Shown piece by piece: positions 6,340-27,559 of a stretch of 32,000 nucleotides of DNA. The DNA comes from Myxococcales bacterium. GTDB lineage: Bacteria > Myxococcota_A > Polyangia > Haliangiales > Haliangiaceae. The notes beneath the pieces were generated by a model that did not search any database, was not told the origin of the DNA, and was given only the letters and a program-made list of their open reading frames with translations. Both the position numbers and the translations under genes were made by a program. Each line of letters starts with the position of its first letter. The first letter of the stretch is position 1. The DNA lies in contig JADJUF010000037.1 in NCBI GenBank assembly GCA_016717005.1, forward strand, positions 759,011 to 791,010, given 5' to 3'.

Positions 6340-6512
6340 GCACGCCGCGGTCGGAGTGTACCGGCGCGGCACCAGCCCGGGCCTCACGGCGCGGTCGGCG
6401 TGTACCGGCGCGGCGGCCCGGGCCTCACGGCGCGGTTGGCGTGCGTCGGAGTGGCACCAGCCCGGGGCTCACGGCGCGGTCGGCTTGCGCCGGAGCGGCA
6501 CCAGCCCGGGGC
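6340..6512 (-). repeat. Four tandem units (44, 41, 44, 44 bp) reproducing the last 13 codons + stop of gene 6469..7038
   Basis: Units are 6340-6383, 6384-6424, 6425-6468 and 6469-6512 (the last is the real gene end). TCA (the stop on the minus strand) starts units 2-4 and has become GCA in unit 1. Divergence increases with distance from the gene. Confidence 0.9.
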
Positions 6513-7038
6513 GCAGCGGCGCGGCGATGCCGGCCTCGAAGTCGACCCAGATGTTGGCGTCCTCGCGGCAGTCGTACTGTCGGCACTGGGCCGGGCGGTG
6601 CGCGTAGCACTGGCAACCGCCGTCGGTGCGATCCTGGTACGCGCACGAGCCGTGGTCGCCGTGCGGCAGGACGTAGGGCTGCTCGAGCCGCCACGCCAGC
6701 TTGCCCTCGACCAGATCCTGCTCCGACAGGCTGATGTCGTACGCGCAGCACCGGCCGTGGCACAGGTGCATGCGGCTGGCGCAGTCGATCTCGGCGCCCG
6801 CCATCCCGTACTTGTCGGGCGCGGACTCGAGCCGGATCTGCGGCTCGGTGATCAGCCGCGCGTGCTGGCGCAGGCGCGTGAGCATGCGCAGGTGGCCCTC
6901 GCCGAGCTGGCCCCGCGCGCGCAGGATCTCGAGCAGCGTCTCGACCACGTAGCCGAGCTCGGCGGCGGTCTGCTCGGCGCGCTCGCTGATCGCCATCGCG
7001 CGCCGCAGCTCGGCGCGCAGCTCGTCGAGCTCGTCCAT
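6469..7038 (-). CDS. YkgJ-family cysteine-cluster (Zn/Fe-binding) protein
   Basis: ORF 6469..7038-. Cys-rich core CASRMHLCHGRCCAYDISL ... GSCAYQDRTDGGCQCYAHRPAQCRQYDC, typical of the UPF0153/YkgJ family. Its start lies 12 nt after the stop of the upstream hydrolase gene. Confidence 0.8.
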   Translation of the reverse strand: MDELDELRAELRRAMAISERAEQTAAELGYVVETLLEILRARGQLGEGHLRMLTRLRQHARLITEPQIRLESAPDKYGMAGAEIDCASRMHLCHGRCCAYDISLSEQDLVEGKLAWRLEQPYVLPHGDHGSCAYQDRTDGGCQCYAHRPAQCRQYDCREDANIWVDFEAGIAAPLRPGLVPLRRKPTAP

Positions 7039-7050
7039 GGACGCGCGCGC

Positions 7051-9330
7051 CTACAGCGACTCGGTGTTGGCGTACGGCGCGAACGTGCGGCACTGCTGGC
7101 CGCGCAGCGACGGACACGGCGGCAGCGGGCTGGGGATGCTCACGCCCGGCACCACCGGCAGCACCACGCTCGACGGGTGGTCGCCGTCGTGGCCGATCTC
7201 GTAGACCACGTCGCCGCTGAACGGCTTGTTGAGGAAGAACCACTCGGCGCGGCTGCCGCCGGGGGTGTCGACGGTCACGCGCAGGCGCGAGCCGGCGCGG
7301 ACCGCGTGCTGGATGCCGGCGGTGCCGACCCGCACCTGGGTCCACGCGCCCGGCACCAGCGGCGCCGCCAGGGCCTGCGTGAACGCCGGCGCCGGATCCA
7401 GCTCGGTCGCGCCGGGGCCGCTGCCGCGGAGGCTGGCCCGGATCCAGCCCGACTGGATGTACATCTCCTGGCCGTCGGGCCGGATCTCGGTGAGGTTGAC
7501 CTCGAGGTCGGCGTCGTCGACCGGCGACCGCAGCCACAGGTCGACCGACGCGGTGCCGTACATGACCGTGTCGGCGGCCAGCGGCGCGCTGTCGAACACC
7601 ACCGCCGAGCCCGCGGCCGGCTGCGGCCACCGGTAGTCGGGGAGCACGTCCCAGACGTCGCCGCCCGGCGCCAGGATGCTGACGCGGCCCGCGTCCGGGT
7701 CGAGCTTGAAGGTGAACGGGGCGGCCAGCGCCGTCGGCGTCGCCGGCAGGAGCGCGCCGTCGGGGTGCGCGTACAGGCGCAGCGGCGTGGTGCCCGGCGC
7801 CGGCCAGCGCGCGAACGACTGCTCGAAGGTCGGCACCGGCTCGCCGATCGTCAGGCCGCCGGCGCCGCTCTCGAACAGCGCCCGCAGCGGCGGCTCGGCC
7901 ATCCACTCGCTGACCGCGGCGTCGTAGCTGGCCGCGTTGACGAACCGGCTCGCGTCGATCCGCATGTCGTTGACGCCGAACACCGTCTCGTAGAGCTGCG
8001 GCGCGATCGCCCGCGACACCGGCAGATCGATCGGGACCCGCTTGGCCACGAACAGCTCGAGGAACGTGCCCCACTCCTGGAGCACCGCCGGCTGGAACGC
8101 GTCGATGTGGACGCCGTTGTAGACGGTCATGCGCAGCGCCGGCGAGCTCGTGAACTTGTCGAGCATCGTGAAGAAGTACGGGCCGGTCTGCTCGTCCTGC
8201 CAGGCGCTGGCGAGGAACACCGGCACGTTGATCTTGTCGACGAAGGTCGCGAGGTTGAAGCGGTCGTGCTCGGCGGGCACGTAGTAGCTGATCTGGCGCG
8301 CCTGCTCGACGTTGTCGATGTACTGGCCGTGCAGGAGCTGGTTCTCGGCGCACACCGTGTCGCCCTTGTCGACCTGGCTCTGCTCCCAGCCCTGGCCGTA
8401 GGGCTTGGCCTTCGAGATCACGTTGGTGATCCACGCGGTCGCGAAGCCATCGTTGAGGATGCCGCCGGGCAGCATCGTGGTGTTGGCGGCGCCGATCACC
8501 GACAGCGGCGCGATCGCCGCCAGGTGCGGCGGCTGGGTCTGGGCCACGAACAGCTGCGTGATGCCCGGGTACGACAGGCCGACCATGCCGACCTTGTTGT
8601 TCATCACCCACGGCTGGGCGCCGACGGTCTCGATCACGTCGTAGCCGTCGAGCAGCTGCATCGTCTCGAAGAAGTCGAACGCGCCGCCCGAGCAGCCGGT
8701 GCCGCGGATGTTGACGTTGACCGTGGCGTAGCCGAAGAACGACGCGATCAGCGCCGACGGATCGTTGGGCGCGTCGCAGATCGACGGGATGCCGTCGCAC
8801 AGGCCCGCCAGCGAGCCGTCGCCGATCGGCTCGCCGGGCTTCGACGGCTCGTAGCCGGAGTAGCTGACCACCGTCGGGTACGGCGGGTCGCCGGCCGGGA
8901 ACGTGATGTACGCCGACAGCGTCGTGCCGTCGCGGGTGCGGATGTACTGGTAGCCCTTGGTCAGCGCCTGGTCGCTGTAGAAGCGCGGCTCGACCTTGCT
9001 CGACTCGACCGACATGACCTCGAACGAGCGGGTCTTGAGGGCGGGCATCGCGGTGGTGGTCTTGATGACGTAGCCGTCGCCGGGGGCCAGGCCGCGGAAC
9101 ATCAGGCTGCCGAGCTCGTCGGTCGTGCCGACGGCGACCTGGGCGCCGGCGCGGTCGAACACCGCCAGCTCGGTGGCCGGCGGCGCGTGCGTGACGTGGA
9201 GCTGCTGGACCGAGGGCCGCACGTCGAACGGCGGGACCTCGTCGTCGCCGCAGGCGGCCACCACAGCGACGGCGGCCAGCAGGGCGCCGGAGATGAACGA
9301 TCGCACGAGAAGTCGCATGGCGCGCAGCAT
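7051..9330 (-). CDS. CocE/NonD-family hydrolase (X-Pro dipeptidyl-peptidase S15-like) lipoprotein
   Basis: Inside ORF 7051..9831-. ATG 9330 (or 9318) gives MLRAMRLLVRSFISGALLAAVAVVAACGDD. GxSYxG nucleophile motif in MVGLSYPGITQ. Long C-terminal beta-sandwich-like region. Confidence 0.9.
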   Translation of the reverse strand: MLRAMRLLVRSFISGALLAAVAVVAACGDDEVPPFDVRPSVQQLHVTHAPPATELAVFDRAGAQVAVGTTDELGSLMFRGLAPGDGYVIKTTTAMPALKTRSFEVMSVESSKVEPRFYSDQALTKGYQYIRTRDGTTLSAYITFPAGDPPYPTVVSYSGYEPSKPGEPIGDGSLAGLCDGIPSICDAPNDPSALIASFFGYATVNVNIRGTGCSGGAFDFFETMQLLDGYDVIETVGAQPWVMNNKVGMVGLSYPGITQLFVAQTQPPHLAAIAPLSVIGAANTTMLPGGILNDGFATAWITNVISKAKPYGQGWEQSQVDKGDTVCAENQLLHGQYIDNVEQARQISYYVPAEHDRFNLATFVDKINVPVFLASAWQDEQTGPYFFTMLDKFTSSPALRMTVYNGVHIDAFQPAVLQEWGTFLELFVAKRVPIDLPVSRAIAPQLYETVFGVNDMRIDASRFVNAASYDAAVSEWMAEPPLRALFESGAGGLTIGEPVPTFEQSFARWPAPGTTPLRLYAHPDGALLPATPTALAAPFTFKLDPDAGRVSILAPGGDVWDVLPDYRWPQPAAGSAVVFDSAPLAADTVMYGTASVDLWLRSPVDDADLEVNLTEIRPDGQEMYIQSGWIRASLRGSGPGATELDPAPAFTQALAAPLVPGAWTQVRVGTAGIQHAVRAGSRLRVTVDTPGGSRAEWFFLNKPFSGDVVYEIGHDGDHPSSVVLPVVPGVSIPSPLPPCPSLRGQQCRTFAPYANTESL

Positions 9331-9450
9331 GGCACAGCTGTCGGCGCCTGGGCGAGTCGAGTTCGGTGGCGCGCCGGCCGCGTGCGCGGCCTCACCCGCG
9401 GACGGCGGGTGCCAGGGAATGAGCGCCGCGGTGGGCCGGGTTGGATCCAC

Positions 9451-9942
9451 ATGCGCCCGCGTCCCTGGTCCCGGCTCGTCGTCCTGGCGCTGGCGCTGCT
9501 GGTCGGGTGCGATCACGCCACCAAGCTCGGCGCCGAGCACGCGCTGCGCGACGGCGGACCGCGCCCGGTGATGACCGGGATCGATCTCGCGTACCACCAG
9601 AACCACGGCGTCGCGTTCAACCTCGAGCGCGTGCTGCCGGCGAGCGGCCGCACCGCGGTGATCCTGGTGGCCGGCCTGGCGGCGCTGGGCTTCCTCGGCG
9701 CGGCGCTGTGGCGGCGGCGCGGCGCGACGTCGCTGGCGGTCGCCGGCTACGTGCTGGTGCTGGCCGGCGCGCTCGGCAACCTGATCGATCGCCTCGCGCG
9801 CGGCTACGTCGTCGACTTCATCCACGTCCACCGCTGGCCAGTCTGGAACGTCGCCGACGCCTGGGTCGTGCTCGGCGTGGCCGCGCTGCTCGTCGCCAGC
9901 CTGCGCGAGCGGCCGCCGGCCGCGCCGACCGCGCCCGCGTGA
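9451..9942 (+). CDS. lspA: Lipoprotein signal peptidase (signal peptidase II)
   Basis: This is the tail of track ORF 6400..9942+, starting at ATG 9451. Motifs present: DHATK, NHGVAFN, LGNLIDR, VVDF and WNVADA. About four TM segments. Confidence 0.9.
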   Translation: MRPRPWSRLVVLALALLVGCDHATKLGAEHALRDGGPRPVMTGIDLAYHQNHGVAFNLERVLPASGRTAVILVAGLAALGFLGAALWRRRGATSLAVAGYVLVLAGALGNLIDRLARGYVVDFIHVHRWPVWNVADAWVVLGVAALLVASLRERPPAAPTAPA

Positions 9943-9995
9943 GCCGGGGCCGCTGAGTCGGTGGCCCGCCCGGGTCGCCTGCGATACCGTCGGAC

Positions 9996-10622
9996 ATGGC
10001 CCTGCGCACCCGGTTCGCCGCTCCGTTCGTGATCGTCATCGCGGGGGCCAGCGCCGGCGGCTGCGGCGACAGCACGTCGGGCGCGACGCACCCCGCGCGC
10101 GCGCCGAGCTGGCAGGTGCAGCGCACGCCGACGGGCTGCGAGGCCATGCCCCGGGTCGACTGCCCGCCGCCCGAGGTCGCGACCTGCAACCCGCCGCCGC
10201 CGCTCGCGATCGCGTGCCCGGCCGACGCGCCCGCCGGCGCCTTCCAGGTGATCGAGCAGCCGCCCGGCCACTGCACGATCGACGGCACGCAGATCGCGCT
10301 GCCGTGCCCGCGCTACGATCAGCCGCCGCCGCCCATCGACGCCGCGGTCGCCGCCGCGCCGAGCCGCCGCTGGGACGTGCTGCGCCGCGACCGCGAGTGC
10401 CTGGCGCAGGACGACCCGTGCGCGCGCCGCGTCCGCGCGCCGGATGAGCCGATACCGCCGTGCAACCCGCCCGCGCCGATCAAGATCGCGTGTCCGCCGG
10501 TCAGCGTGGTCGCGATCAGCGAGCAGGCGCCGGGCACCTGCGTGACCGTCGTCGCCGACTGCGACCCCGGCGTGAAGTGCAACCCGCCGCCGCCCGAGCC
10601 GATCGCCTGCCCGACGCCGTGA
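9996..10622 (+). CDS. Cys/Pro-rich lipoprotein with CNPPPP...IACP repeats
   Basis: ORF 9996..10622+. N-terminus MALRTRFAAPFVIVIAGASAGGCGD. The element CNPP(P/A)P-x2-3-IACP occurs three times. Confidence 0.7.
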   Translation: MALRTRFAAPFVIVIAGASAGGCGDSTSGATHPARAPSWQVQRTPTGCEAMPRVDCPPPEVATCNPPPPLAIACPADAPAGAFQVIEQPPGHCTIDGTQIALPCPRYDQPPPPIDAAVAAAPSRRWDVLRRDRECLAQDDPCARRVRAPDEPIPPCNPPAPIKIACPPVSVVAISEQAPGTCVTVVADCDPGVKCNPPPPEPIACPTP

Positions 10623-10635
10623 GCCGAGCGCTCAC
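10619..10635. terminator. Hairpin joining two convergent stop codons (GTGAGC-cgagc-GCTCAC)
   Basis: TGA 10620-10622 and TCA 10632-10634 lie in the two 6-bp arms. There is no U-tract. Confidence 0.35.
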
Positions 10636-10859
10636 TCGCGGGTCGGCTGCTCGCGCGCGCCGGCCTCGACCAGCGCCGCCTTCTCGTCCGATGTGATCGA
10701 CGCGGTCAGGCGACCGAAGTCGGCGCCCCACACGCCGGCCCAGCTCGCGACGCGCGCGCGGGTCACGTCCGCCGACGCCATCGCCAGCGGATAGACCAGC
10801 ACGGTGGCCGGGTCCTTGGTGCCGAGCAACCCCAGGATCTGATGGACGCTGCGAGCCAT
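10632..10859 (-). CDS. Small hypothetical protein (75 aa)
   Basis: This is the tail of track ORF 10632..11549-, starting at ATG 10859: MARSVHQILGLLGTKDPATVLVYPLAMASADV... It has a strong G/C third-position bias. I recognise no motif. Confidence 0.45.
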   Translation of the reverse strand: MARSVHQILGLLGTKDPATVLVYPLAMASADVTRARVASWAGVWGADFGRLTASITSDEKAALVEAGAREQPTRE

Positions 10860-10949
10860 GCCTGCTCGTACCGCATCGGTACGACATGCCGTGATCGCGC
10901 GCACGCACGCGCTGGCTCCGGGCGCCGCCGCGTCCAGTACGCTCGGTCG

Positions 10950-11399
10950 ATGACACCGCTCGTCCAGGCGATGACGCCGCTCGCCCCATCGCCGCGCGCC
11001 TGCGCCGGTGGGACCTCCCGCGTCGCCGCGAAGCTCGTCGGCAACCCGGGCGACGAGCTCCGCGTCCGGGCGTTCCGCGGCGCGCTCGCCCTCGCGCTGT
11101 CCCTCGCCGCGTGCGCGGGCAACAGCGCGGCGGCCACCGACGCCGGCGTGTGCAGCACCTGCACCGCTGATGAGATCTGCATCCAGGTGATGCACTCGAA
11201 CATCGACGACCCCTGCCAGTCGCTGGGCTTCTCGTGCGCGCCGCGGCGCCCGGAGTGCGTCGGCGCCACCTGCACACCGGGTTGCGACTTCTGGCAGTGC
11301 GGCGACGGCACCGACGCCGGCATGCTCAGCTGCTCCGACCTGCGCACCAGCCAGTGCCCGAACGCGATCTCCGGCGCGCTCCAGTGCTGGGGCCCGTGA
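10950..11399 (+). CDS. Cys-rich secreted lipoprotein (hypothetical)
   Basis: ORF 10842..11399+. In-frame ATGs at 10950 and 10971 precede RVRAFRGALALALSLAACAGN (lipobox). The mature part has 14 Cys. The start codon is uncertain. Confidence 0.6.
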   Translation: MTPLVQAMTPLAPSPRACAGGTSRVAAKLVGNPGDELRVRAFRGALALALSLAACAGNSAAATDAGVCSTCTADEICIQVMHSNIDDPCQSLGFSCAPRRPECVGATCTPGCDFWQCGDGTDAGMLSCSDLRTSQCPNAISGALQCWGP

Positions 11400-11471
11400 C
11401 CGCGTAGCCCAGCGGATCGACGATCGCCGCCCGCGGTGGACAGCGCGGTCGCGCCCGCCGACCATCGCGCG

Positions 11472-11852
11472 ATGGACGCCAAGCAGGTCATCGTGATGCG
11501 CAAGGACCTGAACATGCGCAAGGGCAAGATGATCGCCCAGGGGGCGCACGCGTCGCTCAAGGTGCTGCTCGACCGCGGCGCGCTCGCCGGCGATGGCTTC
11601 GCCTTCACGGTGACGCCGGCGATGGCGGCGTGGCTGGGCGGGCGCTTCACCAAGGTGTGCGTCGGCGTGGCCTCGGAGCAGGAGCTCGAGGACGTGGCCG
11701 CGCGGGCCCAGGCCGCCGGGCTGCCGTGCGCGGTGATCGTCGACGCCGGGGTGACCGAGTTCAAGGGCGTGCCGACCCGCACCTGCCTGGCGATCGGCCC
11801 GGCCTGGGCCGACGAGGTCGACGCCATCACCGGCGCGCTGCCGCTCCTGTGA
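11472..11852 (+). CDS. pth2: Peptidyl-tRNA hydrolase, PTH2 (archaeal/eukaryotic-type) family
   Basis: ORF 11436..11852+, ATG 11472. MDAKQVIVMRKDLNMRKGKMIAQGAHAS ... TKVCVGVASEQEL ... IVDAGVTEFKGVPTRTCLAIGP matches the PTH2 signature as I remember it. Confidence 0.85.
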   Translation: MDAKQVIVMRKDLNMRKGKMIAQGAHASLKVLLDRGALAGDGFAFTVTPAMAAWLGGRFTKVCVGVASEQELEDVAARAQAAGLPCAVIVDAGVTEFKGVPTRTCLAIGPAWADEVDAITGALPLL

Positions 11853-11959
11853 CCTCCCGGTCGCCGGGCTCCCTGGAGCGGCGGTCCGGAGCGCCCGGCT
11901 GCCCGGTGAATCGCCGACCAGCGGGATCGTCTATCCTTCATCCTCACCTGGAGCCCCCC

Positions 11960-12586
11960 ATGACGCCCCGCTGGATCACCCCGCTCCTCGCCGCCCTCGC
12001 GCTGTCCGGCTGCGCCGAGAAGAAGGCCTCGCCGCCGGCGCCGACCGCGGCGCAGCGGGCGCCCGCCGGCGTGCAGCCTCCGGGGCCGAGCCGGGATCGC
12101 CGGGTGCCGATCCGCCCGCGGCCGCAGCTGCCCGACCGGCCGGATGGCGCCGACCAGGCGCCGAGCGATCGCGCGGACCGCCCGTGGGCCGGTCGGGGTG
12201 ACCCGCGCAGCCGCGAGGAGCGCCAGGCCGCGCGCACCGAGCGCCGCGCCGAGATGATGGACATGTACGACGCCGATCAGGACGGCGCGCTGTCGGACGC
12301 CGAGCGCGCCGCGATGCGCGAGAGCCGGGTCGTCGACATGATCGGGCGCCTCGACGCCAACGAAGACGGGCGCCTGACCGAGGACGAGTTCGCGCAGTTC
12401 GGCGCCCGCGGCCGCGGCCCCGCGCTCGACTTCGCGACCGTCGACGCCGACCACGACGGCGCGATCAGCGCCGAGGAGATGAGCGCGGCCCTGCCGGCCC
12501 GGGGGCCTGGCGATCGCCCGCCCGGCGCCCGCCCGGGCCGCCGCGGCTCCGATGACGGCGCGCCGCCTGCCCCGCCGACGCCGTGA
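11960..12586 (+). CDS. EF-hand calcium-binding lipoprotein
   Basis: This is the tail of track ORF 11630..12586+. ATG 11960 has GGAG 8 nt upstream. N-terminus MTPRWITPLLAALALSGCAEKK (LSGC lipobox). Three DxDxDG loops: DADQDGALSDAE, DANEDGRLTEDE and DADHDGAISAEE. Confidence 0.8.
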   Translation: MTPRWITPLLAALALSGCAEKKASPPAPTAAQRAPAGVQPPGPSRDRRVPIRPRPQLPDRPDGADQAPSDRADRPWAGRGDPRSREERQAARTERRAEMMDMYDADQDGALSDAERAAMRESRVVDMIGRLDANEDGRLTEDEFAQFGARGRGPALDFATVDADHDGAISAEEMSAALPARGPGDRPPGARPGRRGSDDGAPPAPPTP

Positions 12587-12597
12587 CGCGCGTCAGA

Positions 12598-13139
12598 TCA
12601 CGGCGCGCCAGCTGCGCGTCGGACGCCTGATCGCGCAGCGGGTCACGGCGGGCCCGCCCGTGACCTCGTAGCGCGAGGCGCCGTCGAGCGCGTGGCCGTC
12701 GCGGACGCCTGATCGCGCCGGTCACGGCGCGCGCGCCCCCGTGACCTCGTAGCTCGAGGTGCAATCGATCGCGTGGCCGTCGCGGACGCTCACCGCGCGG
12801 CGCGTCACGGCGCGCGCGCCCCCGTGACCTCGTAGCTCGAGGTGCAGTCGATCGCGTGGCCGTCGCGGACGCCTCACCGCGCGGCCGGTCACGGCGCGCG
12901 CGCCCCGGTGACCTCGGAGCTCGAGGTGCAATCGATCGCGTGGCCGTCGCGGACGCTCACCGCGCGGCGCGTCACGGCGCGCGCGCCCCCGTGACCTCGT
13001 AGCTCGAGGTGCAGTCGATCGCCTGGCCGTCGCGGACGCCTCACCGCGCGGCGGGTCACGGCGCCCGCGCCCCCGTGACCTCGTAGCTCGAGGTGCAGTC
13101 GATCGCCTGGCCGTCGACGGCGCCGTGGGCCCGCGCGGT
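12598..13139 (-). repeat. Seven tandem units (45, 79, 83, 84, 83, 84, 84 bp) reproducing the last ~27 codons + stop of gene 13056..13574
   Basis: Units start at the TCA at 12598, 12643, 12722, 12805, 12889, 12972 and 13056 (the last is the real gene end). Units 3+4 and 5+6 form a 167-bp higher-order repeat with 4 mismatches. The two distal units are degraded. The array fills the convergent gap to the EF-hand gene. Confidence 0.95.
13054..13080 (-). terminator. 8-bp GC-rich stem-loop with the stop codon in its 3' arm (GGTCACGG-11 nt-CCGTGACC), repeated in every 83/84-bp unit
   Basis: Arms are 13054-13061 and 13073-13080. In the mRNA the arms cover codons E-V-T-G and P-stop. The same stem (7-8 bp) recurs at about 12721, 12804, 12888 and 12971. 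There is no U-tract. Confidence 0.45.
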
Positions 13140-13574
13140 CGCGACGCCGGTGATCGCGCCGTCGGCCAGCGCGCCGTCGGCGCGGATCAGCACCTCGACC
13201 GCGCCGCCCTGCTGGGTGCCCCAGCCGCCCACGACGAACGTGCCGTCGCCGTCGAGCCCGCCGGCGAGGCGGTCGAGGGCGAGGCTGGAGGTGTCGAGCA
13301 CCAGCCGCCCGTCGGTCTGCGTCACGTCGGCGCCGCCGTGATCGACCTCGCCGACGTCGCACAGCGACGCGGTGAAGCTGCCGACCTTGACCGTGCACCG
13401 CCCCGCGCACGCGCTGGTGTACAGCGTCAGGTCGTAGCTGCCGGTCGCGTCGGCGCCGGTGGCGTCGCCCGGCGGCAGGTCGGCGACGTCGACCCGCTCG
13501 AGCAGATCGCCCGGGCCGCCGCCGCAGCCCAGCGCGAGGGCCGCGAGCGCGGCCCAACCGCGGGCGCCGGTCAC
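13056..13574 (-). CDS. Hypothetical lipoprotein
   Basis: Inside ORF 13056..13832-. GTG 13574 gives VTGARGWAALAALALGCGGG (signal peptide + Cys). This GTG overlaps the upstream gene's TGA (13571-13573) as GTGA. Confidence 0.7.
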   Translation of the reverse strand: MTGARGWAALAALALGCGGGPGDLLERVDVADLPPGDATGADATGSYDLTLYTSACAGRCTVKVGSFTASLCDVGEVDHGGADVTQTDGRLVLDTSSLALDRLAGGLDGDGTFVVGGWGTQQGGAVEVLIRADGALADGAITGVATARAHGAVDGQAIDCTSSYEVTGARAP

Positions 13575-15458: not shown

Positions 15459-15722
15459 TCAGCCCTCGCCGGTGCGGACGAACTTCTCGACCGTGCTCGC
15501 CCTCAGCCCTCGCCGGTGCGGACGAACTTCTCGACCGTGCTCGCCCTCAGCCCTCGCCGGTGCGGACGAACTTCTCGACCGTGCTCGCCCTCAGCCCTCG
15601 CCGGTGCGGACGAACTTCTCGACCGTGCTCGCCCTCAGCCCTCGCCGGTGCGGACGAACTTCTCGACCGTGCTCGCCCTCAGCCCTCGCCGGTGCGGACG
15701 AACTTCTCGACCGTGCTCGCCG
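15459..15722 (-). repeat. Six tandem 44-bp units (five identical plus the real gene end, 43/44) reproducing the last 13 codons + stop of gene 15679..16149
   Basis: Unit tcagccctcgccggtgcggacgaacttctcgaccgtgctcgccc starts at 15459, 15503, 15547, 15591, 15635 and 15679. I checked the copies base by base. The array ends 13 nt upstream of the SWIM gene start. Confidence 0.97.
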
Positions 15723-16149
15723 TCAGCTTGAACGCCTGGCGGACGCGGCCGCGCCGGACCTCCTCGTCGGTCGCGACGTCGGTCACCACCAGGATCGCGT
15801 GGGGATCGTCATCGTCGATCGCGACGTCGAGGTCGGCCTTGACCCGCGCGCCGGCGTCGGTCGTGAACGTCAAGGTCCTGTGCAGGGCCGCGCGCGCCGA
15901 CTGCTCGTGGCGCCGCAGCACCTCGCTCGCGGTCTTGACCAGCGTGGCGAACGCGCCGGCGTCGAGCGGCTTGGGGTTGCGCTTGTCGCGGCCCATCGTC
16001 CACGGCCCCACCAGCGCCGGCTCGTCGTCGCCCACGCGGGTCATGGCCACGGCCCAGCCGTCGTCGTCCTCGTTCTTCTGGACCTGCGCGATCCAGCCGG
16101 CCTTGCGCCAGCGGGTCGGCTCGGTGATGTCCTCGGGAGTCGTCTCCAT
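15679..16149 (-). CDS. Hypothetical acidic cytoplasmic protein
   Basis: ORF 15679..16149-. METTPEDITEPTRWRKAGWIAQVQKNEDDDGWAVAMTRVG... Balanced composition with no signal peptide. Confidence 0.75.
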   Translation of the reverse strand: METTPEDITEPTRWRKAGWIAQVQKNEDDDGWAVAMTRVGDDEPALVGPWTMGRDKRNPKPLDAGAFATLVKTASEVLRRHEQSARAALHRTLTFTTDAGARVKADLDVAIDDDDPHAILVVTDVATDEEVRRGRVRQAFKLTASTVEKFVRTGEG

Positions 16150-16261: not shown

Positions 16262-17083
16262 ATGGCGATCCCCGACTCGTCCCGTCCCCTCGCGCCCGCG
16301 CACCTCGCCCCACCTGTGCGCGTCGAGCCGGCGCCGCGCGTCGGCGCGATCGCGACCGCCGCCGCGGTCTCGGTGGCGCTCGCCGCGGGCCTCGGCGGCG
16401 GGCTCATCGCCGCCAGCGCGCCCCGAGCCCACGCCGATCCGTGCGCGCTGCCCGCCGGGCTCGAGCTGACGGCGCTCGACGACGCCGATCGCAGCTGGAT
16501 CGCGCACCGCACCCTGGCGTGCATGGACGTCGCGGCCGGCCGCATCGACGCCGCCGCGTATCGAGCCACCATCGCCGAGCTCGATCACCCGACGCCGACG
16601 CCGGTCGCGACGCCGGCGGCGCCCCCGCCGCCCGCCACGGCCAAGATGGTCTGGGCCACGCGCGTGCTCGGCTTCTCGTCGCAGTGGAGCGACGACGCCT
16701 GGTCGGCCGCGCGCGTGCTCGGCGCGCCCGACGTCGAGGCGCTCGGCACCGACGCGCCCCAGGCCTGGGCGTCGCGCGGCGCCGACGATCGCGACGAGTG
16801 GATCGAGGTCGCGCTGGCGCAGCCGACCCGCCTCGCCGGACTCCGCGTCATCGAGTCGTACAACCCCGGCGCGATCACGCGGGTCGAGGTCGCGGACGCC
16901 GACGGCGCGCGTCGGATCGTCTACTGGGGCGCGGCCGCGCCGCTGGGCCCCGCCGGCCACGAGCTGGCGGTCGCGCTGGGGTGCGCCCAGGCGCCGGTCG
17001 CGAGCATCCGGGTCACCCTCGACTCGCGCGCGGTGATCGGATGGAACGAGCTCGACGCCATCGGCGGCGTCGCCTGCGAGTGA
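16262..17083 (+). CDS. Hypothetical exported or membrane-anchored protein
   Basis: ORF 16262..17083+. It has an N-terminal hydrophobic segment (GAIATAAAVSVALAAGLGGGLIAA), a Pro/Thr linker and a C-terminal ~130-aa domain (MVWATRVLGFSSQWSDDAWSAARVLG...). I cannot assign a family confidently. Confidence 0.7.
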   Translation: MAIPDSSRPLAPAHLAPPVRVEPAPRVGAIATAAAVSVALAAGLGGGLIAASAPRAHADPCALPAGLELTALDDADRSWIAHRTLACMDVAAGRIDAAAYRATIAELDHPTPTPVATPAAPPPPATAKMVWATRVLGFSSQWSDDAWSAARVLGAPDVEALGTDAPQAWASRGADDRDEWIEVALAQPTRLAGLRVIESYNPGAITRVEVADADGARRIVYWGAAAPLGPAGHELAVALGCAQAPVASIRVTLDSRAVIGWNELDAIGGVACE

Positions 17084-17164
17084 CCGCGGCGCCGCCCGCG
17101 CGTGACCGGCGCGACCTGCCCGCGACGCCTGGCGACGCGCGCGGGCTTCGGCGATGCTGCCGCC

Positions 17165-20328: not shown

Positions 20329-21036
20329 TCACGGGATGCACTCGCACGCGTACTCCTGGGTGCCGTTGTCGAACCAGTCGTAGAACTGTCCGCTGCTGCT
20401 GACCAGGACGTAGATCTCGCCCATGCGCGCGTTGGGCTGCCCGGGCGCGAACGGTGGATTCGCGAAGGTCTGGTTCTCGACCGTGGTCCAGATACCGTCG
20501 CGCTGCGGATCGGAGATGCCGGCCCAGTAGAACGGCGAGCTGCCGTTCGGATTCACGAAGCTGTAGACCGCGGTCGCTTCACCGGTCGTCTCGGGGATGA
20601 CGAGGTAGCCACCGTCCGACCTGCAGTCGGCCGCGGCGCTGGTCCACAGCGTCAGCGTATTGACCCGTCGATACCGTGACGTGGCCGGCGCCCCGGTGAC
20701 CGCCTGATAGCCGACACAGCGCGGCTGGGCGTCGATCGGCTGGGCGTCGATCGGCTGGGCGTCGATCGGCTGGGCGTCGATCGGGCGGGCGTCGATCGGC
20801 TGGGCGTCGATCGGCTGGGCATCGATCACCTGGGCGTCGATCACCTGGGCGTCGATCACCTGCGCGTCGATCACCTGGGCGTCAGGCGCCGCATCGACCG
20901 CCGCCGCGTCCAGGTCGGCGTCGGGCGTTGCGCCGCCGTCGCCCGGGCCGTCGATCGTCGCGGCGTCCAGGGTCCCCGTGGCGGCGCGCGGATCGAATGC
21001 GCACGAGGCCAGGACGATCAGGGCGAGGTACCGCAT
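20329..21036 (-). CDS. C-type lectin domain lipoprotein with pentapeptide-repeat linker
   Basis: ORF 20329..21036-. N-terminus MRYLALIVLASCAFD (lipobox). Linker (DAQVI)x4 then (DA[QR]PI)x7. C-terminal CTLD hallmarks: WTSAAADCRSDGGYLV, YWAGISDPQRDGIWT and YDWFDNGTQEYACE. Confidence 0.85.
   Translation of the reverse strand: MRYLALIVLASCAFDPRAATGTLDAATIDGPGDGGATPDADLDAAAVDAAPDAQVIDAQVIDAQVIDAQVIDAQPIDAQPIDARPIDAQPIDAQPIDAQPIDAQPRCVGYQAVTGAPATSRYRRVNTLTLWTSAAADCRSDGGYLVIPETTGEATAVYSFVNPNGSSPFYWAGISDPQRDGIWTTVENQTFANPPFAPGQPNARMGEIYVLVSSSGQFYDWFDNGTQEYACECIP
20723..20887 (-). repeat. Eleven in-frame 15-bp tandem repeats inside the lectin gene
   Basis: Seven ggctgggcgtcgatc-type units are followed by four acctgggcgtcgatc-type units. 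They encode DAQPI and DAQVI respectively. Confidence 0.95.
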
Positions 21037-21146: not shown

Positions 21147-21205
21147 GGACCGATTTTCCAGTTGACACGCCGAAATGTGACGGGCCAATTGTTTGTCGAC
21201 AATTC

Positions 21206-21221
21206 GAATGAACATTCATTC
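21206..21221. promoter_or_regulatory. Operator-like 16-bp palindrome, copy 3 (GAATGAACATTCATTC)
   Basis: This is the best palindrome of the four (7-bp arms GAATGAA/TTCATTC). It ends 21 nt before ATG 21243, just upstream of GGAG at 21232-21235. Confidence 0.5.
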
Positions 21222-21242
21222 GATATCACATGGAGACCCAAG

Positions 21243-22163: not shown

Positions 22164-22172
22164 TCACGCGCG
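22155..22172. terminator. Perfect 18-bp palindrome CGCGCGTGATCACGCGCG containing the stop codon of gene 21243..22163
   Basis: TGA 22161-22163 is at the centre. A related CGCGCGTGATCACTCGCGC overlaps the stop of the convergent msrA gene (22277-22279). Confidence 0.35.
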
Positions 22173-22276
22173 TCGCAGGTGCGCGCCGCCGCTGAACGCC
22201 GTGCGCGCTCGCGGTCACGCGCGCCGAGTGGAACGCCACGCCGCGATCACTCACGAACGGAGCGCCGCGCGCGTGA

Positions 22277-22945
22277 TCACTCGCGCAGGAAGTGGCAGGT
22301 GTACCCGTCGGGGTTGGCCTGCAGGTAGTCCTGATGGTCGGCCTCGGCCGCGGTGAACACGCTGGCCGGCTCGACGGTGGTGACGACCGGCGTCGGCCAG
22401 ACCCCGCTGGCGTCGACCCGGGCCCGCACCGCCAGCGCGGTCGAGCGCTGGGCCGCGGTCGTGTAGAAGATCGTCGAGCGGTACTGCGAGCCGCGATCGT
22501 TGCCCTGGCGATCGAGCGTGGTCGGGTCGTGCATGCGGAAGTACCAGCGCTGGAGCAGGACCTCGTAGCTGAGCCGGGCCGGATCGAACTCGACCTTGAC
22601 CGACTCGGCGTGGCCGGTGTCGCCGCGGTGGACGAGGTCGTAGCGCGCGGTCGCGGGATCGCCCCCGATGTAGCCGACCTCGGTGTCGACGACGCCGTCG
22701 ACCTGCCGCAGCAGCTCCTCCATGCCCCAGAAGCACCCGCCGGCGAGGATCGCGACCTCGTGGCCCGGCCCCGCCGCCGGGGTGATCGGCTCGGGCGCCG
22801 GCCCGGCGGGGGCCGACGGATCCGCCGGCGCCGGTCGCGCCGTCGGCGTCGCACGCTCACCGCCGCGGTCGCACGCGCCAAGGAGGACCAGCGCGACGAG
22901 GACCGCGCGGCGCGAGGTGACCATGGACCAGCTACGCACCGACAT
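22277..22945 (-). CDS. msrA: Peptide-methionine (S)-S-oxide reductase MsrA, exported lipoprotein form
   Basis: ORF 22277..22945- (alternative ATG 22924). Signal peptide RRAVLVALVLLGACDRG. Catalytic GCFWG motif in ILAGGCFWGMEELL. Confidence 0.9.
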   Translation of the reverse strand: MSVRSWSMVTSRRAVLVALVLLGACDRGGERATPTARPAPADPSAPAGPAPEPITPAAGPGHEVAILAGGCFWGMEELLRQVDGVVDTEVGYIGGDPATARYDLVHRGDTGHAESVKVEFDPARLSYEVLLQRWYFRMHDPTTLDRQGNDRGSQYRSTIFYTTAAQRSTALAVRARVDASGVWPTPVVTTVEPASVFTAAEADHQDYLQANPDGYTCHFLRE

Positions 22946-23091
22946 GGCCCAGGTTACCGCCTGCTGCCCTCGTGGCGAGGCCGCGCCCGGGCCGGCCCGT
23001 GGCCCGAGGGGCGGCCCGCGAGCCCCTCGCGCCCGCGGTTTGTGGTCCCACGGGTGACGCGCGCCTGACGGCCGGGCGACACTAGCAGTCG

Positions 23092-24720
23092 ATGCGACGC
23101 TCGAGTCGACGCCTGCTGGTGCTGGTCGCGGCGCTGCCCGTGACGCTGGTCCTGCTGGCGTTCCTCTACATGCTCGGGATGGCGCACCTCGAGGGCAAGG
23201 AGCGCGGCTTCTGGCAGGCGCTCGAGTGGGCCGGCGAGACCGTGACCACGACCGGCTACGGCGCCGACTCGGGCTGGACTCACCCGGTGATGGTCGTGTT
23301 CACGGTCGTGACCCAGTTCGTCGGCGTGTTCATGACCTTCCTGGTCTTCCCTGTGTTCCTGATCCCGTTCTTCGAGGAGCGGTTCGAGGGACGCCTGCCG
23401 ACCAAGCTGCCGACCCGCGCCGGCACCGTGCTGGTCTACCGCTGGGGCCCGGCGGTCGCGACCTTGGTCGACGAGCTGACCCGCGAGCGGGTCCCGGTGG
23501 TGATCCTCGAGAACGACCTGGCGATCGCCCGCCGCATCCGCGATCGCGGCCACACGGTCGTCCACGGCGATCTCGATCTCGACGACGACGTCCTCGGTGA
23601 GCTGCGCGGCGTCCGCGGCATCGTCGCGAACGGCCAGGATCACCAGAACGCGGTGCTGACGCTGAGCGCGCGCCAGCGCGGCTTCAAGGGGCCGATCGTC
23701 GCGCTGGTCGAGACCCCGAGCCGGCGCGCGCCGATGATGCGCGCCGGGGCCACCGCGGTGTTCACGCCGCGCCACGCCCTCGCGGCCGCGCTCGCAGCCA
23801 AGGCCAGCGTGAAGATCAGCCCGCGCGTCACCGGCGAGCGCCGCCTGGGCAAGGCCCTCGAGATCGCCGAGGTCCGCGTGCACCGCGGCAGCGCGCTGGT
23901 CGGCACGACCCTGGCGACCGCCAACCTGCGCGGCGAGACCGGCGCCACGATCATCGGCAAGTGGATCGGCGGTGAGCTCGACGCGCCGCCGTCCCCGACC
24001 CAGCCGATGGAGGTCGGGACGATCCTGGTCGCCGCGGGCAGCCGCGACGCGATCGCGCGGCTGGGCGAGCTGGCGACGCCGGTGGCGCGCACCGGCCGGT
24101 TCTTGATCCTCGGCAACGACGAGACCGGCCGCAAGGTCGCCGAGTTCCTGCGCGACGCCGGCGAGGAGGTCACGGTCATCGACGATCAGCCCGGCGCCGG
24201 CGTCGACGTGGTCGGCGACATCCTCGATCCTGAGCTGCTCCGCCGCGCGGGCATCGCCGGGGCGCAGGCGGTGCTGCTGGTCATGGAGAGCGACAGCGAG
24301 ACCACGTTCGCCGCGGCCGTCGTCCGCGATCTGGTCAGCGACGCCGCGGTGATCGCCAGCGTCGACAACGCCGACCACGTCGCCCGGGTCCACCGCGCAG
24401 GCGCCGACTTCGTCCTGTCGATCGGGCAGGTCGCGGGTCAGCTGCTGTCGTTCCAGATCCTGGGCGAGGAGGCCGTGACCCTGCAGCCCGAGATCAAGCT
24501 GGTCAAGACCCTGGCCGGCGCCCTGGCCGGGCAACGCCTGCGCGCCGCGAAGGTGCGCGAGCGCACCGGGTGCCTGGTGATCGCGGTCGAGCGGACCGAC
24601 GAGGTCGTCGTCGACTTCCCGGGCGACTTCGTGATCGGCGCCGACGACGTCGTCTACATCAGCGGCACGCCGGCCACGATCGCCCAGTACTTCGAGACGT
24701 TCGCCGGAACCCGCCCGTGA
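23092..24720 (+). CDS. Potassium channel with two RCK (TrkA-N/TrkA-C) domains
   Basis: ORF 23092..24720+. Two TM helices flank the selectivity filter TVTTTGYGAD. Two Rossmann-like RCK-N segments follow, each with a TrkA-C-like segment. Confidence 0.9.
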   Translation: MRRSSRRLLVLVAALPVTLVLLAFLYMLGMAHLEGKERGFWQALEWAGETVTTTGYGADSGWTHPVMVVFTVVTQFVGVFMTFLVFPVFLIPFFEERFEGRLPTKLPTRAGTVLVYRWGPAVATLVDELTRERVPVVILENDLAIARRIRDRGHTVVHGDLDLDDDVLGELRGVRGIVANGQDHQNAVLTLSARQRGFKGPIVALVETPSRRAPMMRAGATAVFTPRHALAAALAAKASVKISPRVTGERRLGKALEIAEVRVHRGSALVGTTLATANLRGETGATIIGKWIGGELDAPPSPTQPMEVGTILVAAGSRDAIARLGELATPVARTGRFLILGNDETGRKVAEFLRDAGEEVTVIDDQPGAGVDVVGDILDPELLRRAGIAGAQAVLLVMESDSETTFAAAVVRDLVSDAAVIASVDNADHVARVHRAGADFVLSIGQVAGQLLSFQILGEEAVTLQPEIKLVKTLAGALAGQRLRAAKVRERTGCLVIAVERTDEVVVDFPGDFVIGADDVVYISGTPATIAQYFETFAGTRP

Positions 24721-25071
24721 TCCGCGGCCCGCGCCGCCACCGCGCCGCCACCGCGCCGGCGCGCGCGGCCCCTCGCGACCTGCGCCGGCGCCCGCCGGTG
24801 ATCGATGGCGCGCGCGCCGCCACCGCGCCGGCGCGCGCGGCCTGCGCGACCTGCGCCGGCGCTCGCCGGTGATCGATGGCGCGCGCGCCGCCACCGCGCC
24901 GGCGCGCGCGGCCTGCGCGACCTGCGCCGGCGCCCGCCGGTGATCGATGGCGCGCGCGCCGCCACCGCGCCGGCGCGCGCGGCCTGCGCGACCTGCGCCG
25001 GCGCCCGCCGGTGATCGATGGCGCGCGCGCCGCCACCGCGCCGGCGCGCGCGGCCTGCGCGACCTGCGCCG
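24707..25071 (+). repeat. Five tandem units (81, 71, 71, 71, ~60 bp) each containing a copy of the K+ channel gene's last ~4 codons + TGA + a strong GC hairpin
   Basis: TGATC starts units at 24718 (the real stop), 24799, 24870, 24941 and 25012. Units 3 and 4 are identical and unit 2 differs by 1 nt. Unit 1 carries an extra 11-bp duplication (gccaccgcgcc). Confidence 0.95.
24809..24839 (+). terminator. 11-bp all-G:C stem with 9-nt loop (CGCGCGCGCCG-ccaccgcgc-CGGCGCGCGCG), repeated in units 2-5 of the array
   Basis: Arms are 24809-24819 and 24829-24839. The same hairpin recurs at +71, +142 and +213 nt. There is no U-tract. Confidence 0.5.
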
Positions 25072-25198
25072 CGGTCCGTTCAGGACGCGGTCGACGCGAT
25101 GATCCCGGGCTGCGTCCCGCGCGACGCGGAGCCGCGCCACGCGGAGCCGCGCGATCCGCAGCGACGCGCTTGCGCAACCTCGGGGGCCGCTGCTACCG

Positions 25199-26107
25199 AT
25201 GGCGATGACCACCATGCTCGTGCCGTGCGTCTGGCTCGACGATCAAGCCGAGGCGGCCGCGGCGCTCTACACCGAGCTCTTCCCGGGCGGCCGGACGACC
25301 GCGGTGGCGCGCTACCCCGAGGCCACCGACAACCCCAGCGGCCGGCCGCGCGGCAGCGTGCTCACCATCGAGGTCGAGCTCGCCGGGCAGCGCTGCACCT
25401 TGCTCAACGGCGGCCCGATGTTCACGCTCAACCCGAGCCTCTCGCTGTTCGTGCAGCTCGACGACAGCACAGCTGCCCGTCGACTGTTCGGTCGGCTCGC
25501 CGAGGGAGGCGAGGTGCGGATGCCGCTCGACCAGTACCCGTGGAGCCCGTGCTACGGCTGGGTCCAGGATCGGTTCGGCGTGTCGTGGCAGGTGATCACC
25601 GGCCGGCGCGCGCCCGCCGGCGACACGATCGTCCCGTGCCTGATGTTCGCGGGCGCCCAGCACGGTCGGGCCGAGGAGGCGCTGCGCCGGTACGCCGCGA
25701 TCTTCCCCGACGGCCGCGTCGACAGCCTCGAGCCGTACGGGCCCGACGAGGGCCCCGCCGGCACGCTCAAGCACGGGCGCTGCACGCTCGCCGGGCACGA
25801 GCTGGTGGCGATGGACAGCCACCTCGCCCACGACGTCGCGTTCAACGAGGCGCTGTCGCTGCAGGTGATGTGCGCCGATCAGGCCGAGGTCGATCGCTGC
25901 TGGGACGCGCTGGTCGACGGCGGCACGCCTGGCCCGTGCGGCTGGTTGAAGGATCGGTTCGGCGTGTCGTGGCAGGTCGTGCCGAGCGCGATCGCCGCGT
26001 GGATGGCCGGCCCCGACACCGCCGCGCGCGACCGCGCGTTCGCGGCGATGCTGACGATGGGCAAGCTCGACGTCGCCGCGCTCGAGCGCGCCTTCACCGG
26101 CGCGTGA
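25199..26107 (+). CDS. VOC-superfamily protein, tandem PhnB / 3-demethylubiquinone-9 3-methyltransferase-like domains
   Basis: ORF 25199..26107+. MLVPCVWLDDQAEAAAALYTELFPGG and two copies of DRFGVSWQV are typical of the PF06983-type fold. Confidence 0.85.
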   Translation: MAMTTMLVPCVWLDDQAEAAAALYTELFPGGRTTAVARYPEATDNPSGRPRGSVLTIEVELAGQRCTLLNGGPMFTLNPSLSLFVQLDDSTAARRLFGRLAEGGEVRMPLDQYPWSPCYGWVQDRFGVSWQVITGRRAPAGDTIVPCLMFAGAQHGRAEEALRRYAAIFPDGRVDSLEPYGPDEGPAGTLKHGRCTLAGHELVAMDSHLAHDVAFNEALSLQVMCADQAEVDRCWDALVDGGTPGPCGWLKDRFGVSWQVVPSAIAAWMAGPDTAARDRAFAAMLTMGKLDVAALERAFTGA

Positions 26108-26211
26108 GCGGGCGCGCGCACCTCACGTCGCCATGAGCGCGGCGCGGATCCTGGCGTCGGCGCGGACCTCGCTCTCGGCGTGGGCCCAGCGCGGGTTGTC
26201 CGTGCGCGCCG

Positions 26212-26868
26212 TCACGCCCAGCGCGGGGCCGCCGAGGTCGACCGCAGCGGCAGCTCCTGCAGGTCGGCCCACGCAGCGACCGCGGCCTCGGTGTCCGTGG
26301 CCAGCTCGGCCGCGAACCAGCGCCTGTCCCCCCGCCAGACCTCGCCGCCGAACGGGCCCCACACCACCGCGTCGATCTGATCGGTCGGGATCCACAGCGC
26401 GTGGTCGTCCATCCGGGCCAGCAGCGGCACCGGGAGGTTGCAGCGCAGGCGGTTGGGCACCCGATGCTGCTGACGCAGGACCTCTCCGACGACGTGCCCG
26501 ACGACCGCGCCGGCGAGCAGGCCGGCGGTCACGCGCGTCGCCAGGGCGACCCCGGGATCGTCGAGCTCGCGGTGGCGGCCGCCCGGGATGAACCCGACGC
26601 CGTGCTCGGCGAAGACCACCGCGCCCCGCATCGCCGGGAGCCCCGCCGCGTCGACCTCGACCCGGTGCGCCGTGAGCCGGCCCATCGGCTCGCCCTGGAC
26701 CGCGGCCCAGCGGGCCAGGTAGCTGGCGAGGTCGCCGATCCGCTCCTCGATCAGGCCGGCGATGACGCGCTTGCCCTCGGCCGAGAGGTCGTCGAAGTAC
26801 CAGGCGTGCAGCAGCTCCTCGTCCGAGCGGCGGGCCCAACGCTCACGGATCACCTTCTCCATCGACAT
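26212..26868 (-). CDS. Hypothetical protein
   Basis: ORF 26212..26868-. MSMEKVIRERWARRSDEELLHAWYFDDLSAEGKRVIAGLIEERIG... Balanced composition with one hydrophobic segment. Confidence 0.7.
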   Translation of the reverse strand: MSMEKVIRERWARRSDEELLHAWYFDDLSAEGKRVIAGLIEERIGDLASYLARWAAVQGEPMGRLTAHRVEVDAAGLPAMRGAVVFAEHGVGFIPGGRHRELDDPGVALATRVTAGLLAGAVVGHVVGEVLRQQHRVPNRLRCNLPVPLLARMDDHALWIPTDQIDAVVWGPFGGEVWRGDRRWFAAELATDTEAAVAAWADLQELPLRSTSAAPRWA

Positions 26869-26946
26869 GCCCTGCTATCGACCGCCGCGGCCAGCGGTTG
26901 CGTGGCGGCCGGCAGATCCGCGCGCGCGAGGTCACAATGGCGCGCG

Positions 26947-27447
26947 ATGACCACGACCCGCACCCAGCTCACGCTGTTCGTCGACGACCGGGACGCGGCC
27001 GCGCTCGAGGAGGTGCGCGCCGAGTTCAACCCGGCGCAGCACCGCCTGATCCGGAGCCACGTCACGCTGTGCCGCGAGGACGAGCTGCTCGAGCTCCCGC
27101 GCATCCGCGGCAACCTGGCCGCCGCGCTGCCGAGCCTGGCGCTGACCTTCGGGCCGCCGCGCCGGTTCGCGGACGGCGCCGGCGTGCTGCTGCCGGCGAT
27201 CGGCGATCCCGCGCCGTTCGAGCAGCTCCGGGCCGCGGTGCTGGCCGGCGTCACCGCGGCGCCCCGCGCCCTGGCGGCGCACATCACGCTCATGCACCCG
27301 CGCAACGCGACCTGCACCGCCGCCGTGTTCGCGCAGATCGCGGCGCGCCGCCTGCCCGACCGGCTGCGGTTCGGCGCGATCAGCCTGATCGCGCAGGTCG
27401 ACGGCGGCCCCTGGACCGTGCTCGACGAGTTCCCGCTGCGGTCGTGA
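26947..27447 (+). CDS. 2H phosphoesterase superfamily protein (2'-5' RNA ligase/LigT-like)
   Basis: This is the tail of track ORF 26401..27447+, ATG 26947. Two H-x-T-x motifs are present: SHVTLC and AHITLM. Confidence 0.75.
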   Translation: MTTTRTQLTLFVDDRDAAALEEVRAEFNPAQHRLIRSHVTLCREDELLELPRIRGNLAAALPSLALTFGPPRRFADGAGVLLPAIGDPAPFEQLRAAVLAGVTAAPRALAAHITLMHPRNATCTAAVFAQIAARRLPDRLRFGAISLIAQVDGGPWTVLDEFPLRS

Positions 27448-27465
27448 GCCGCGCGCGCGGCGGCG

Positions 27466-27559
27466 TCAGGCCGCGTCGGCGTCGGTGATCGGCGACGGCG
27501 CGCGGGCCGGGGTCAGGCCGCGTCGTCGTCGGTGATCAGCGCGACGATGATCGCGTCGC
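27466..27559 (-). repeat. 47-bp duplication of the 3' end + stop of gene 27513..28109 (units 27466-27512 and 27513-27559)
   Basis: The first 29 nt after each TCA are 27/29 identical (tcaggccgcgtcgNcgtcggtgatcNgcg) and the remainder has decayed. The copy would encode ...PITDADAA-stop versus the real ...LITDDDAA-stop. Confidence 0.85.

Follow-up and report, generated by a model that had tools for sequence, protein, structure and literature searches.

The window analysed here, a stretch of 32,000 nucleotides from the genome of a Myxococcales bacterium (contig JADJUF010000037.1, positions 759,011 to 791,010), contains five genes that are each trailed by tandem copies of their own 3′ end, stop codon included. 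The arrays, designated A1 to A5 (Table 1), hold one to five extra in-register copies each, with units of 44, 83/84, 44, 71 and 47 bp, respectively, that comprise the last 5–20 codons of the gene together with its TGA. They are probably locus-specific minisatellites that arose by slippage-type duplication and were retained where the genes are spared, with no dedicated system behind them. This most probable cause, slippage-type duplication combined with selection in a gene-dense, GC-rich genome, is a mundane one, and what is unusual is the local abundance of the arrays. The evidence base consists of this one 32-kb window and of loci from relatives.

Anatomy of the Arrays

That five genes are trailed by tandem copies of their own 3′ ends had been proposed in an earlier reading of the DNA made without database searches (hereafter the sequence-only reading), and it is borne out by Tandem Repeats Finder (TRF), with which the arrays were called, by unit-by-unit alignment against the stop codons and by Markov simulations. 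In third-order simulations of the window (n = 40), no array with a period of at least 20 and a TRF score of at least 100 was obtained, the maximum being 99, and the real arrays score 147–817. In addition, 7 of the 34 genes have, within the 160 nt downstream, a second occurrence of the 21-mer closed by their stop codon (at least 16 of 21 matches), as compared with 0 of 34 for an upstream stretch of equal length.

Table 1. Array-bearing genes, their arrays and other tandem repeats of the window (positions counted from its first nucleotide)
Feature	Position	Strand	Description
YkgJ-family CxxCxxCC protein gene	6469..7038	-	Pfam PF03692; last 13 codons and TGA are the first A1 unit
A1	6341..6510	-	four units of 44/43/40/41 bp; stop 6469-6471
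Lipoprotein gene, IPL61_26945 (MBK9034858, 100% identical)	13056..13574	-	last 20 codons and TGA are the first A2 unit
A2	12620..13118	-	six units of 84/83/84/83/81/81 bp; stop 13056-13058
A2 decayed tail	12551..12619	-	TRF period 45, 76% matches
Conserved acidic hypothetical protein gene, IPL61_26965 (MBK9034862, 100% identical)	15679..16149	-	last 13 codons and TGA are the first A3 unit
A3	15459..15727	-	six perfect 44-bp units plus 5-nt microhomology GCTGA; stop 15679-15681
K+ channel gene	23092..24720	+	Pfam Ion_trans_2 and 2x TrkA_N/TrkA_C; last ~5 codons and TGA open A4
A4	24702..25071	+	81-bp gene-proximal unit, four 71-bp units, then 5-nt partial repeat CGCCG; stop 24718-24720
Hypothetical protein gene	27513..28109	-	last ~10 codons and TGA are the first A5 unit
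A5	27451..27548	-	two ~47-bp units, 88-90% alike; stop 27513-27515
Sixth long array	1784..1936	-	79 bp x 1.9, 87% alike; purely intergenic
Weak repeat	17064..17125	+	22 bp x 2.7 across the TGA of gene 16262-17083; 17/21 identical at offset 22
In-frame intragenic array	20722..20883	-	15 bp x 10.8 (pentapeptide array) in C-type lectin domain gene 20329-21036
In-frame intragenic array	29951..30030	-	36 bp x 2.2 in gene 29496-30287

The units abut exactly, head to tail and without spacers, so that CRISPR is excluded, as had been stated before. In A1, with units at 6510–6467 (the gene end), 6466–6424, 6422–6383 and 6381–6341, decay grows with distance from the gene: the second unit is 91% identical to the gene copy and the last two match it partially (BLAST). 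The A2 unit, previously credited with 27 codons, consists of 20 codons, the TGA and ~21 nt of 3′ flank, and its copies are 97–84% identical to the gene copy. Alternating A2 units share diagnostic substitutions and thereby form a higher-order dimer (84 + 83), which shows that a two-unit block was itself duplicated. On the + strand, a convergent EF-hand gene shares its last ~12 codons and its stop codon (12584–12586) with the decayed tail of A2, and the low-complexity C-terminal tail of the EF-hand protein (ending in APPAPPTP) may therefore be encoded by repeat debris. The graded decay away from the gene described by the sequence-only reading is seen at A1 and A2. At A4, the 71-bp units are 98–100% alike and the gene-proximal 81-bp unit is the most diverged copy. 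Nested within this 81-bp unit is a further repeat, an 11-bp unit (CCGCGCCGCCA) present in 2.7 perfect copies at 24729–24758. Repeated events over time, which had been proposed earlier from the decay, are supported by it and by the A2 dimer; the diverged copies, their indels and the dimer structure imply several rounds of duplication separated by time.

A3 widens the spacer to the next co-directional gene (start 15445) from 13 nt to 233 nt, A5 fills the gap to within 3 nt of the stop codon (27445–27447) of a convergent + strand gene, and A1 and A4 lengthen the leaders of the genes that follow them. In A2 and A1, the copies downstream specify altered C-termini that are each closed by a separate stop codon, and distal copies decay, losing both the stop and the reading frame.

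The gene ends from which the arrays start are native C-termini, since homologues terminate at the same position. The C-terminus of the YkgJ-family protein (ending in PGLVPLRRKPTAP) is conserved, and its homologues stop at the same alignment column, while that of the lipoprotein (ending in DCTSSYEVTGARAP) is aligned with the ends of 10 homologues. For the acidic protein, ~8000 homologues of 155–157 aa end in RTGEG/A at the same column. Relatives of the K+ channel align through residues 540–542 of 542, and the ends of homologues of the A5 host protein fall 2–6 residues from its C-terminus.

Locus-Specific Units and Their Absence from Relatives

Units of 40–100 bp between genes resemble the loci of mycobacterial interspersed repetitive units (MIRU) that vary in copy number (MIRU-VNTR; PMC3184786), a likeness that would suit a dispersed mobile or repetitive family, comparable to MIRU, repetitive extragenic palindromes (REP) or miniature inverted-repeat transposable elements (MITE), or else a CRISPR-like array. 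Such an origin is extremely improbable here, given that each unit copies the conserved 3′ coding sequence of its own adjacent gene. No similarity was detected between units, and apart from GC-rich matches of at most 25 nt, neither the window nor ~1.5 Mb of related loci yielded further copies; like spacers, terminal inverted repeats and unit open reading frames (ORFs) with start codons are lacking, and the A3 unit contains no ATG, GTG or TTG in any frame. As the units are mutually unrelated and undispersed, a REP-, MITE- or MIRU-type family is excluded, in agreement with the sequence-only reading. Head-to-tail, spacerless units of ~10–100 bp that are each unique to one locus are the hallmarks of minisatellites, or variable number tandem repeats (VNTRs), and all are found in these arrays.

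Judged from orthologous loci without them (L176, L163, L162 and L082), the arrays are lineage-specific insertions. On a wastewater contig (L176), the YkgJ and DUF2541-like genes are syntenic with those of the window and 80–84% identical, and the A1 segment is present in a single copy, which is the ancestral state; the gap between the two genes is 162 nt there, compared with 329 nt in the window. The DUF2541-like lipoprotein is encoded by the ORF that follows A1 (5690–6259). Judged from its 84% identical orthologue in L176, translation probably begins at the ATG at 6139 (149 aa), which would make the A1-containing gap 329 nt and not 209 nt. The sequence after the stop codon in L176 weakly resembles the start of the A1 unit and includes a CCGGGC-like motif; this resemblance could be microhomology. 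A CxxCxxCC gene in another locus (L081) was considered as an orthologue of the A1 gene and rejected as not being so.

Orthologues of the acidic-protein gene in L082, L162 and L163 carry no array, and the genes downstream of acidic-protein orthologues differ; in other species, orthologous loci are single-copy. Across 80 metagenomic orthologous loci, a recurrent array at the same gene end was found only in L083, from a wastewater metagenome, where a 107-bp x 2 repeat of intergenic sequence (L083:616–829) follows the A3 gene's orthologue (77% identical). It begins 1 nt before the TGA and represents an array of a different organism that is independent of A3 and placed at the corresponding gene end. 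The nearest genomes that could be retrieved are Kofleriaceae metagenome-assembled genomes (MAGs), which share 70–79% aa identity over the K+ channel, and no synteny around the K+ channel gene was found in the closest of them (L001–L005). One of these MAGs carries an array of its own (L001:6237–6878, 107 bp x 6, 98% alike), which starts 11 nt past the stop codon of a gene on the - strand (6890–9805); in each of its units, a hairpin of 8 perfect bp (GTGAGGAT-GAA-ATCCTCAC) is found together with a TGA-terminated stretch of coding-like character that does not match the end of that gene.

Slippage Combined with Selection as the Probable Origin

The formation of the arrays may be pictured as follows. 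Slippage during replication, or a template switch from one short GC-rich microhomology to another, would produce a tandem duplicate of a short segment that spans the stop codon, and once two copies are present, further slippage or unequal recombination could expand, contract or re-duplicate them. Selection would then pick the survivors: intragenic duplications would persist only in frame, and expression would suffer from duplications across a start codon or promoter. Where a stop codon is spanned, the complete protein and its stop would still be encoded by the first copy. Because the protein is left unchanged and later copies remain untranslated, such arrays would be free to expand, to drift in size and to decay as filler.

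GC content is 72–79% along the whole window (~75% overall). Microhomologies or partial repeats are found as GCTGA at A3 (TCAGC on the + strand), which includes the stop codon and brings the array to a length of 6 x 44 + 5, as CGCCG trailing A4, and as GC at A1. The microhomologies that the sequence-only reading had named, GCTGA at A3 and CCGCGCCG near A1, are both present. Long GC-rich microhomologies are reported to be ~1000x more prone to tandem duplication, and filtering by reading frame has been described in yeast (PMC8639346).

A filter of this kind is supported by the periods of the repeats in the window: of the arrays within genes, 9 of 11 have a period divisible by three, and of those elsewhere, 3 of 11 do (Fisher p = 0.03). 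The TRF scores of the two exceptions within genes, at most 61, fall in the chance range. The same contrast bears on whether the arrays might be artefacts of long-read metagenome assembly or polishing. Going by its IPL61 tags and MBK90... accessions, the source is presumably a nanopore-based activated-sludge MAG, and A3 and A4, the perfect arrays, may have been assigned a wrong copy number. An artefactual origin of the arrays themselves is nevertheless very improbable, considering that the genic versus non-genic difference in periods is a biological signature, that the copies of A1, A2 and A5 are diverged by substitutions, small indels and a higher-order pattern that assemblers do not invent, and that a 20-kb locus with GCA_0167/JADJ accessions, presumably from the same MAG series as the window, has no such arrays.

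Tight packing of genes probably accounts for much of the anchoring at gene ends. With the arrays collapsed, the gaps measure 13 nt at A3, 18 nt at A5 and 57 nt at A2, and the median of the window is ~63 nt, so that a gene-sparing duplication of 44–84 bp almost must overlap a gene end. When duplications of the observed lengths were placed uniformly on the array-collapsed window, ~81% were intragenic, and the others spanned a stop codon only (27%), a stop codon and another gene end (8%) or a start codon (28%), or were intergenic (36%). Hence, ~35% of the simulated gene-sparing events cross a stop codon. Five of the six long arrays with periods not divisible by three lie at stop codons (p = 0.007–0.06, depending on whether start-spanning events count as tolerated), only a mild excess given that about a third of gene-sparing events are expected there. 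Anchoring at stops therefore exceeds only mildly what would follow from tight packing and purifying selection. The first explanation of the sequence-only reading, by which neutrality is confined to duplications that span a stop, suffices for the greater part of the pattern, as indicated by the simulated share and the reading-frame signature. That every array is anchored on a stop codon, as had also been claimed, does not hold: the array at 1784–1936 starts 16 nt past the stop codon at 1952–1954 and ends before the start of the next gene.

Stop Codons as Possible End-Points of Duplication

Several observations weigh against slippage and selection as the full explanation. First, the six long arrays with periods not divisible by three in 32 kb compare with about eight in ~1.5 Mb of other high-GC loci, a ~40-fold higher density, although this comparison is post hoc and its sample mixes long-read Kofleriaceae MAGs, and the locus presumed to be of the same MAG series as the window, with short-read assemblies, which may collapse arrays. 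The filter accounts for where arrays survive and not for the high rate of duplication here. Second, the microhomology at A2 and A5 consists of only 1–2 nt or of eroded ends, and at A1 it is likewise short. Third, the simple model predicts as many start-spanning as stop-spanning arrays, and no start-spanning array is seen in the window, so that the filter needs the extra assumption that duplications of starts and promoters are selected against. Finally, in 3 of 6 strong arrays, namely A1, A3 and that of L083, unit boundaries fall no more than 2 nt from the TGA (-1 to +2 nt), with 0.41 such cases expected (P(≥3) = 0.005; the definition was chosen post hoc and 6–7 arrays entered the test), and a pile-up of boundaries at the stop codon is not predicted by neutral filtering.

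The pile-up and the lack of start-spanning arrays would both be expected of a mutational mechanism linked to stop codons, in which duplications start at stops because these are preferred end-points of template switching; ribosome release that uncouples RNA polymerase, Rho loading or R-loops, and stalling of polymerases or replication forks are candidate causes. Arrays in L001, L023 and L163 that begin 11–19 nt past a stop codon are in keeping with this idea. We nonetheless consider it rather unlikely, since, apart from the post hoc nature and small size of the boundary test, the unit boundaries of A2, A4 and A5 lie 17–52 nt beyond the stop, the 79-bp array at 1784–1936 lies off any stop codon, the position of the A3 boundary is forced by the 13-nt spacer, and neither a hairpin nor a terminator marks these stops.

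Possible Functions of the Arrays

Apart from its origin, an array could serve a function, for instance by tuning 3′ untranslated regions (UTRs) or intercistronic spacing, as a binding platform for RNA or protein, or as a store of silent C-terminus cassettes that are used through recombination. The change of an operon-like junction by A3 and the extension of leaders by A4 and A1 would agree with a role in spacing, for which there is a precedent in Mycobacterium tuberculosis, where expression of fpg correlates with the length of the ETR-F repeat that separates this gene from rnc (PMC2734929). Likewise, the variant C-termini with their own stop codons in the downstream copies of A2 and A1 would suit a cassette model. 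A function is, however, distinctly unlikely. The five array genes are unrelated in function (a YkgJ-family protein, a lipoprotein, a cytosolic acidic protein, a K+ channel and a hypothetical protein), their orthologues in relatives lack arrays, and the distal copies lose stop and frame. Moreover, the units share no common motif, significant structure or Rfam family.

A structured RNA or terminator function in particular was rejected: the units have no match in Rfam, no intrinsic terminators were found at the arrays, and single units fold no better than their shuffles (z -1.3 to +1.1). Only a two-unit construct of A4 folds well (z = -3.4), which any GC-rich direct repeat that contains palindromic GCGC runs would be expected to do. 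Purifying selection on the downstream copies of A2 was also considered; the substitutions are distributed 6/5/15 over the codon positions, but these counts reduce to ~five independent events because the copies share ancestry, too few to bear on it. An active process linked to stop codons, of the kind offered by the sequence-only reading in its second explanation, is not required for the pattern and is rather unlikely. Slippage-type duplication followed by selection, for which mechanism and neutrality are both inferred, remains the reading that we prefer.

Comparison with Described Repeat Systems

No direct description of stop-anchored 3′-end arrays in bacteria or Myxococcota was found in the literature, the nearest being the tandem repeats (TRs) of Borgs, ETR-F, MIRU and microhomology-mediated tandem duplications (MTDs). 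The sequence-only reading went too far in stating that the pattern is not accounted for by any described system, given that ETR-F fills the rnc–fpg gap in M. tuberculosis (PMC2734929).

Of these, the Borg TRs (Schoelmerich et al., 2023, PMC9879509) come closest. They are likewise numerous, locus-specific direct repeats of independent, genome-specific origin, include repeat regions that start within the ends of ORFs (PMC9879509), have flanking partial repeats and have been attributed to polymerase slippage. Genic Borg units are all divisible by three and most intergenic ones are not, which parallels the difference of 9/11 versus 3/11 observed here. In contrast, Borg TRs are perfect and A-rich and reside on giant linear archaeal elements, whereas the present arrays lie on an ordinary bacterial chromosome of 75% GC, are imperfect in the case of A1, A2 and A5, are in several cases old and decayed, and are known from one window.

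ETR-F (VNTR3239), located between rnc and fpg, shares locus-specific repeats of tens of bp, has a variable copy number and stretches a co-directional junction of 1–6 bp in relatives to ~280–360 bp (PMC2734929), comparable to the widening of the spacer at A3. It differs in that it starts 40 bp past the stop codon and ends at the next start codon, and does not contain the codons and stop of the upstream gene. MIRU (Supply et al., 1997, via PMC3184786 and PMC12548453) are tandem units of 40–100 bp between operon genes, and the unit ends overlap the stop and start codons of the neighbouring genes (PMC3184786, PMC12548453). However, MIRU form one dispersed and probably mobile family with internal ORFs that are translationally coupled at start codons, whereas the units in the window are all different, derived from the neighbouring gene, devoid of start codons and anchored on the stop, and those of 44, 71 and 47 bp change the reading frame with every copy. 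As in the arrays, tens of bp are duplicated in MTDs (PMC8639346), between microhomologies that are short and preferably rich in GC; the duplications are reversible, and survivors in essential genes keep the reading frame (PMC8639346). MTDs have mainly been described as subclonal two-copy events in yeasts, in contrast to the fixed, multi-copy arrays at bacterial gene 3′ ends described here, for which microhomology is clear only at A3 and A4.

The likeness to Borgs raises the possibility that the source, a Kofleriaceae-like bacterium, has a lineage-specific and highly active repeat-forming process that would be initiated preferentially at translation stops, for example if ribosome release uncoupled RNA polymerase and thereby stalled replication. 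We consider this unlikely. Were it true, one would expect hundreds to thousands of stop-anchored minisatellites, reshaped 3′ UTRs and operon junctions, and new C-terminal repeat material. Irrespective of where duplications start, if the density of the window holds genome-wide, the organism would be a bacterial counterpart to the Borgs with a very high rate of short tandem duplication. Its genome would then offer a natural experiment on which classes of duplication (stop-spanning, in-frame, start-spanning or intergenic) are tolerated, and would show the remodelling of operon junctions and 3′ UTRs, as in the change from 13 to 233 nt at A3. Should the high density be confined to this region, the arrays would be no more than ordinary minisatellites. 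They also matter for annotation and assembly: short-read assemblies are broken by arrays of this type, so that long-read MAGs may show them more widely.

Other Repeats and Gene Content of the Window

Besides the arrays discussed above, the weak repeat at 17064–17125 may be a sixth stop-spanning repeat; its TRF score of 71 is within the range of the random simulations. The two in-frame intragenic arrays listed in Table 1 lie in a C-type lectin domain gene and in the gene at 29496–30287.

The window holds ~36 ordinary chromosomal genes according to a gene map based on GC content at third codon positions (GC3) and checked against Pfam, among them genes for IMPDH, MsrA, PTH2, an S15 peptidase, a TetR regulator, the K+ channel and the EF-hand protein. 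A Pfam scan of 30 window proteins yielded neither mobile-element nor Cas genes. Gene ends of the form Pro-TGA occur in 9 of 34 window genes (26%), which makes C-terminal proline unusually common. As a trigger of duplication, the C-terminal proline or a stalling of ribosomes at Pro-TGA was considered and rejected as unsupported, with 3 of 5 array genes ending in this way compared with 9 of the 34 window genes (Fisher p = 0.10).

An apparent intergenic gap of 660 nt at 3773–4432 contains two short ORFs of very high GC3 on the - strand (3882–4040 and 4092–4274), which may be unannotated small genes. The peptidyl-tRNA hydrolase encoded at 11436–11852 is of the PTH2 type (PF01981), a type typical of archaea and eukaryotes that is found here in a myxobacterial genome.

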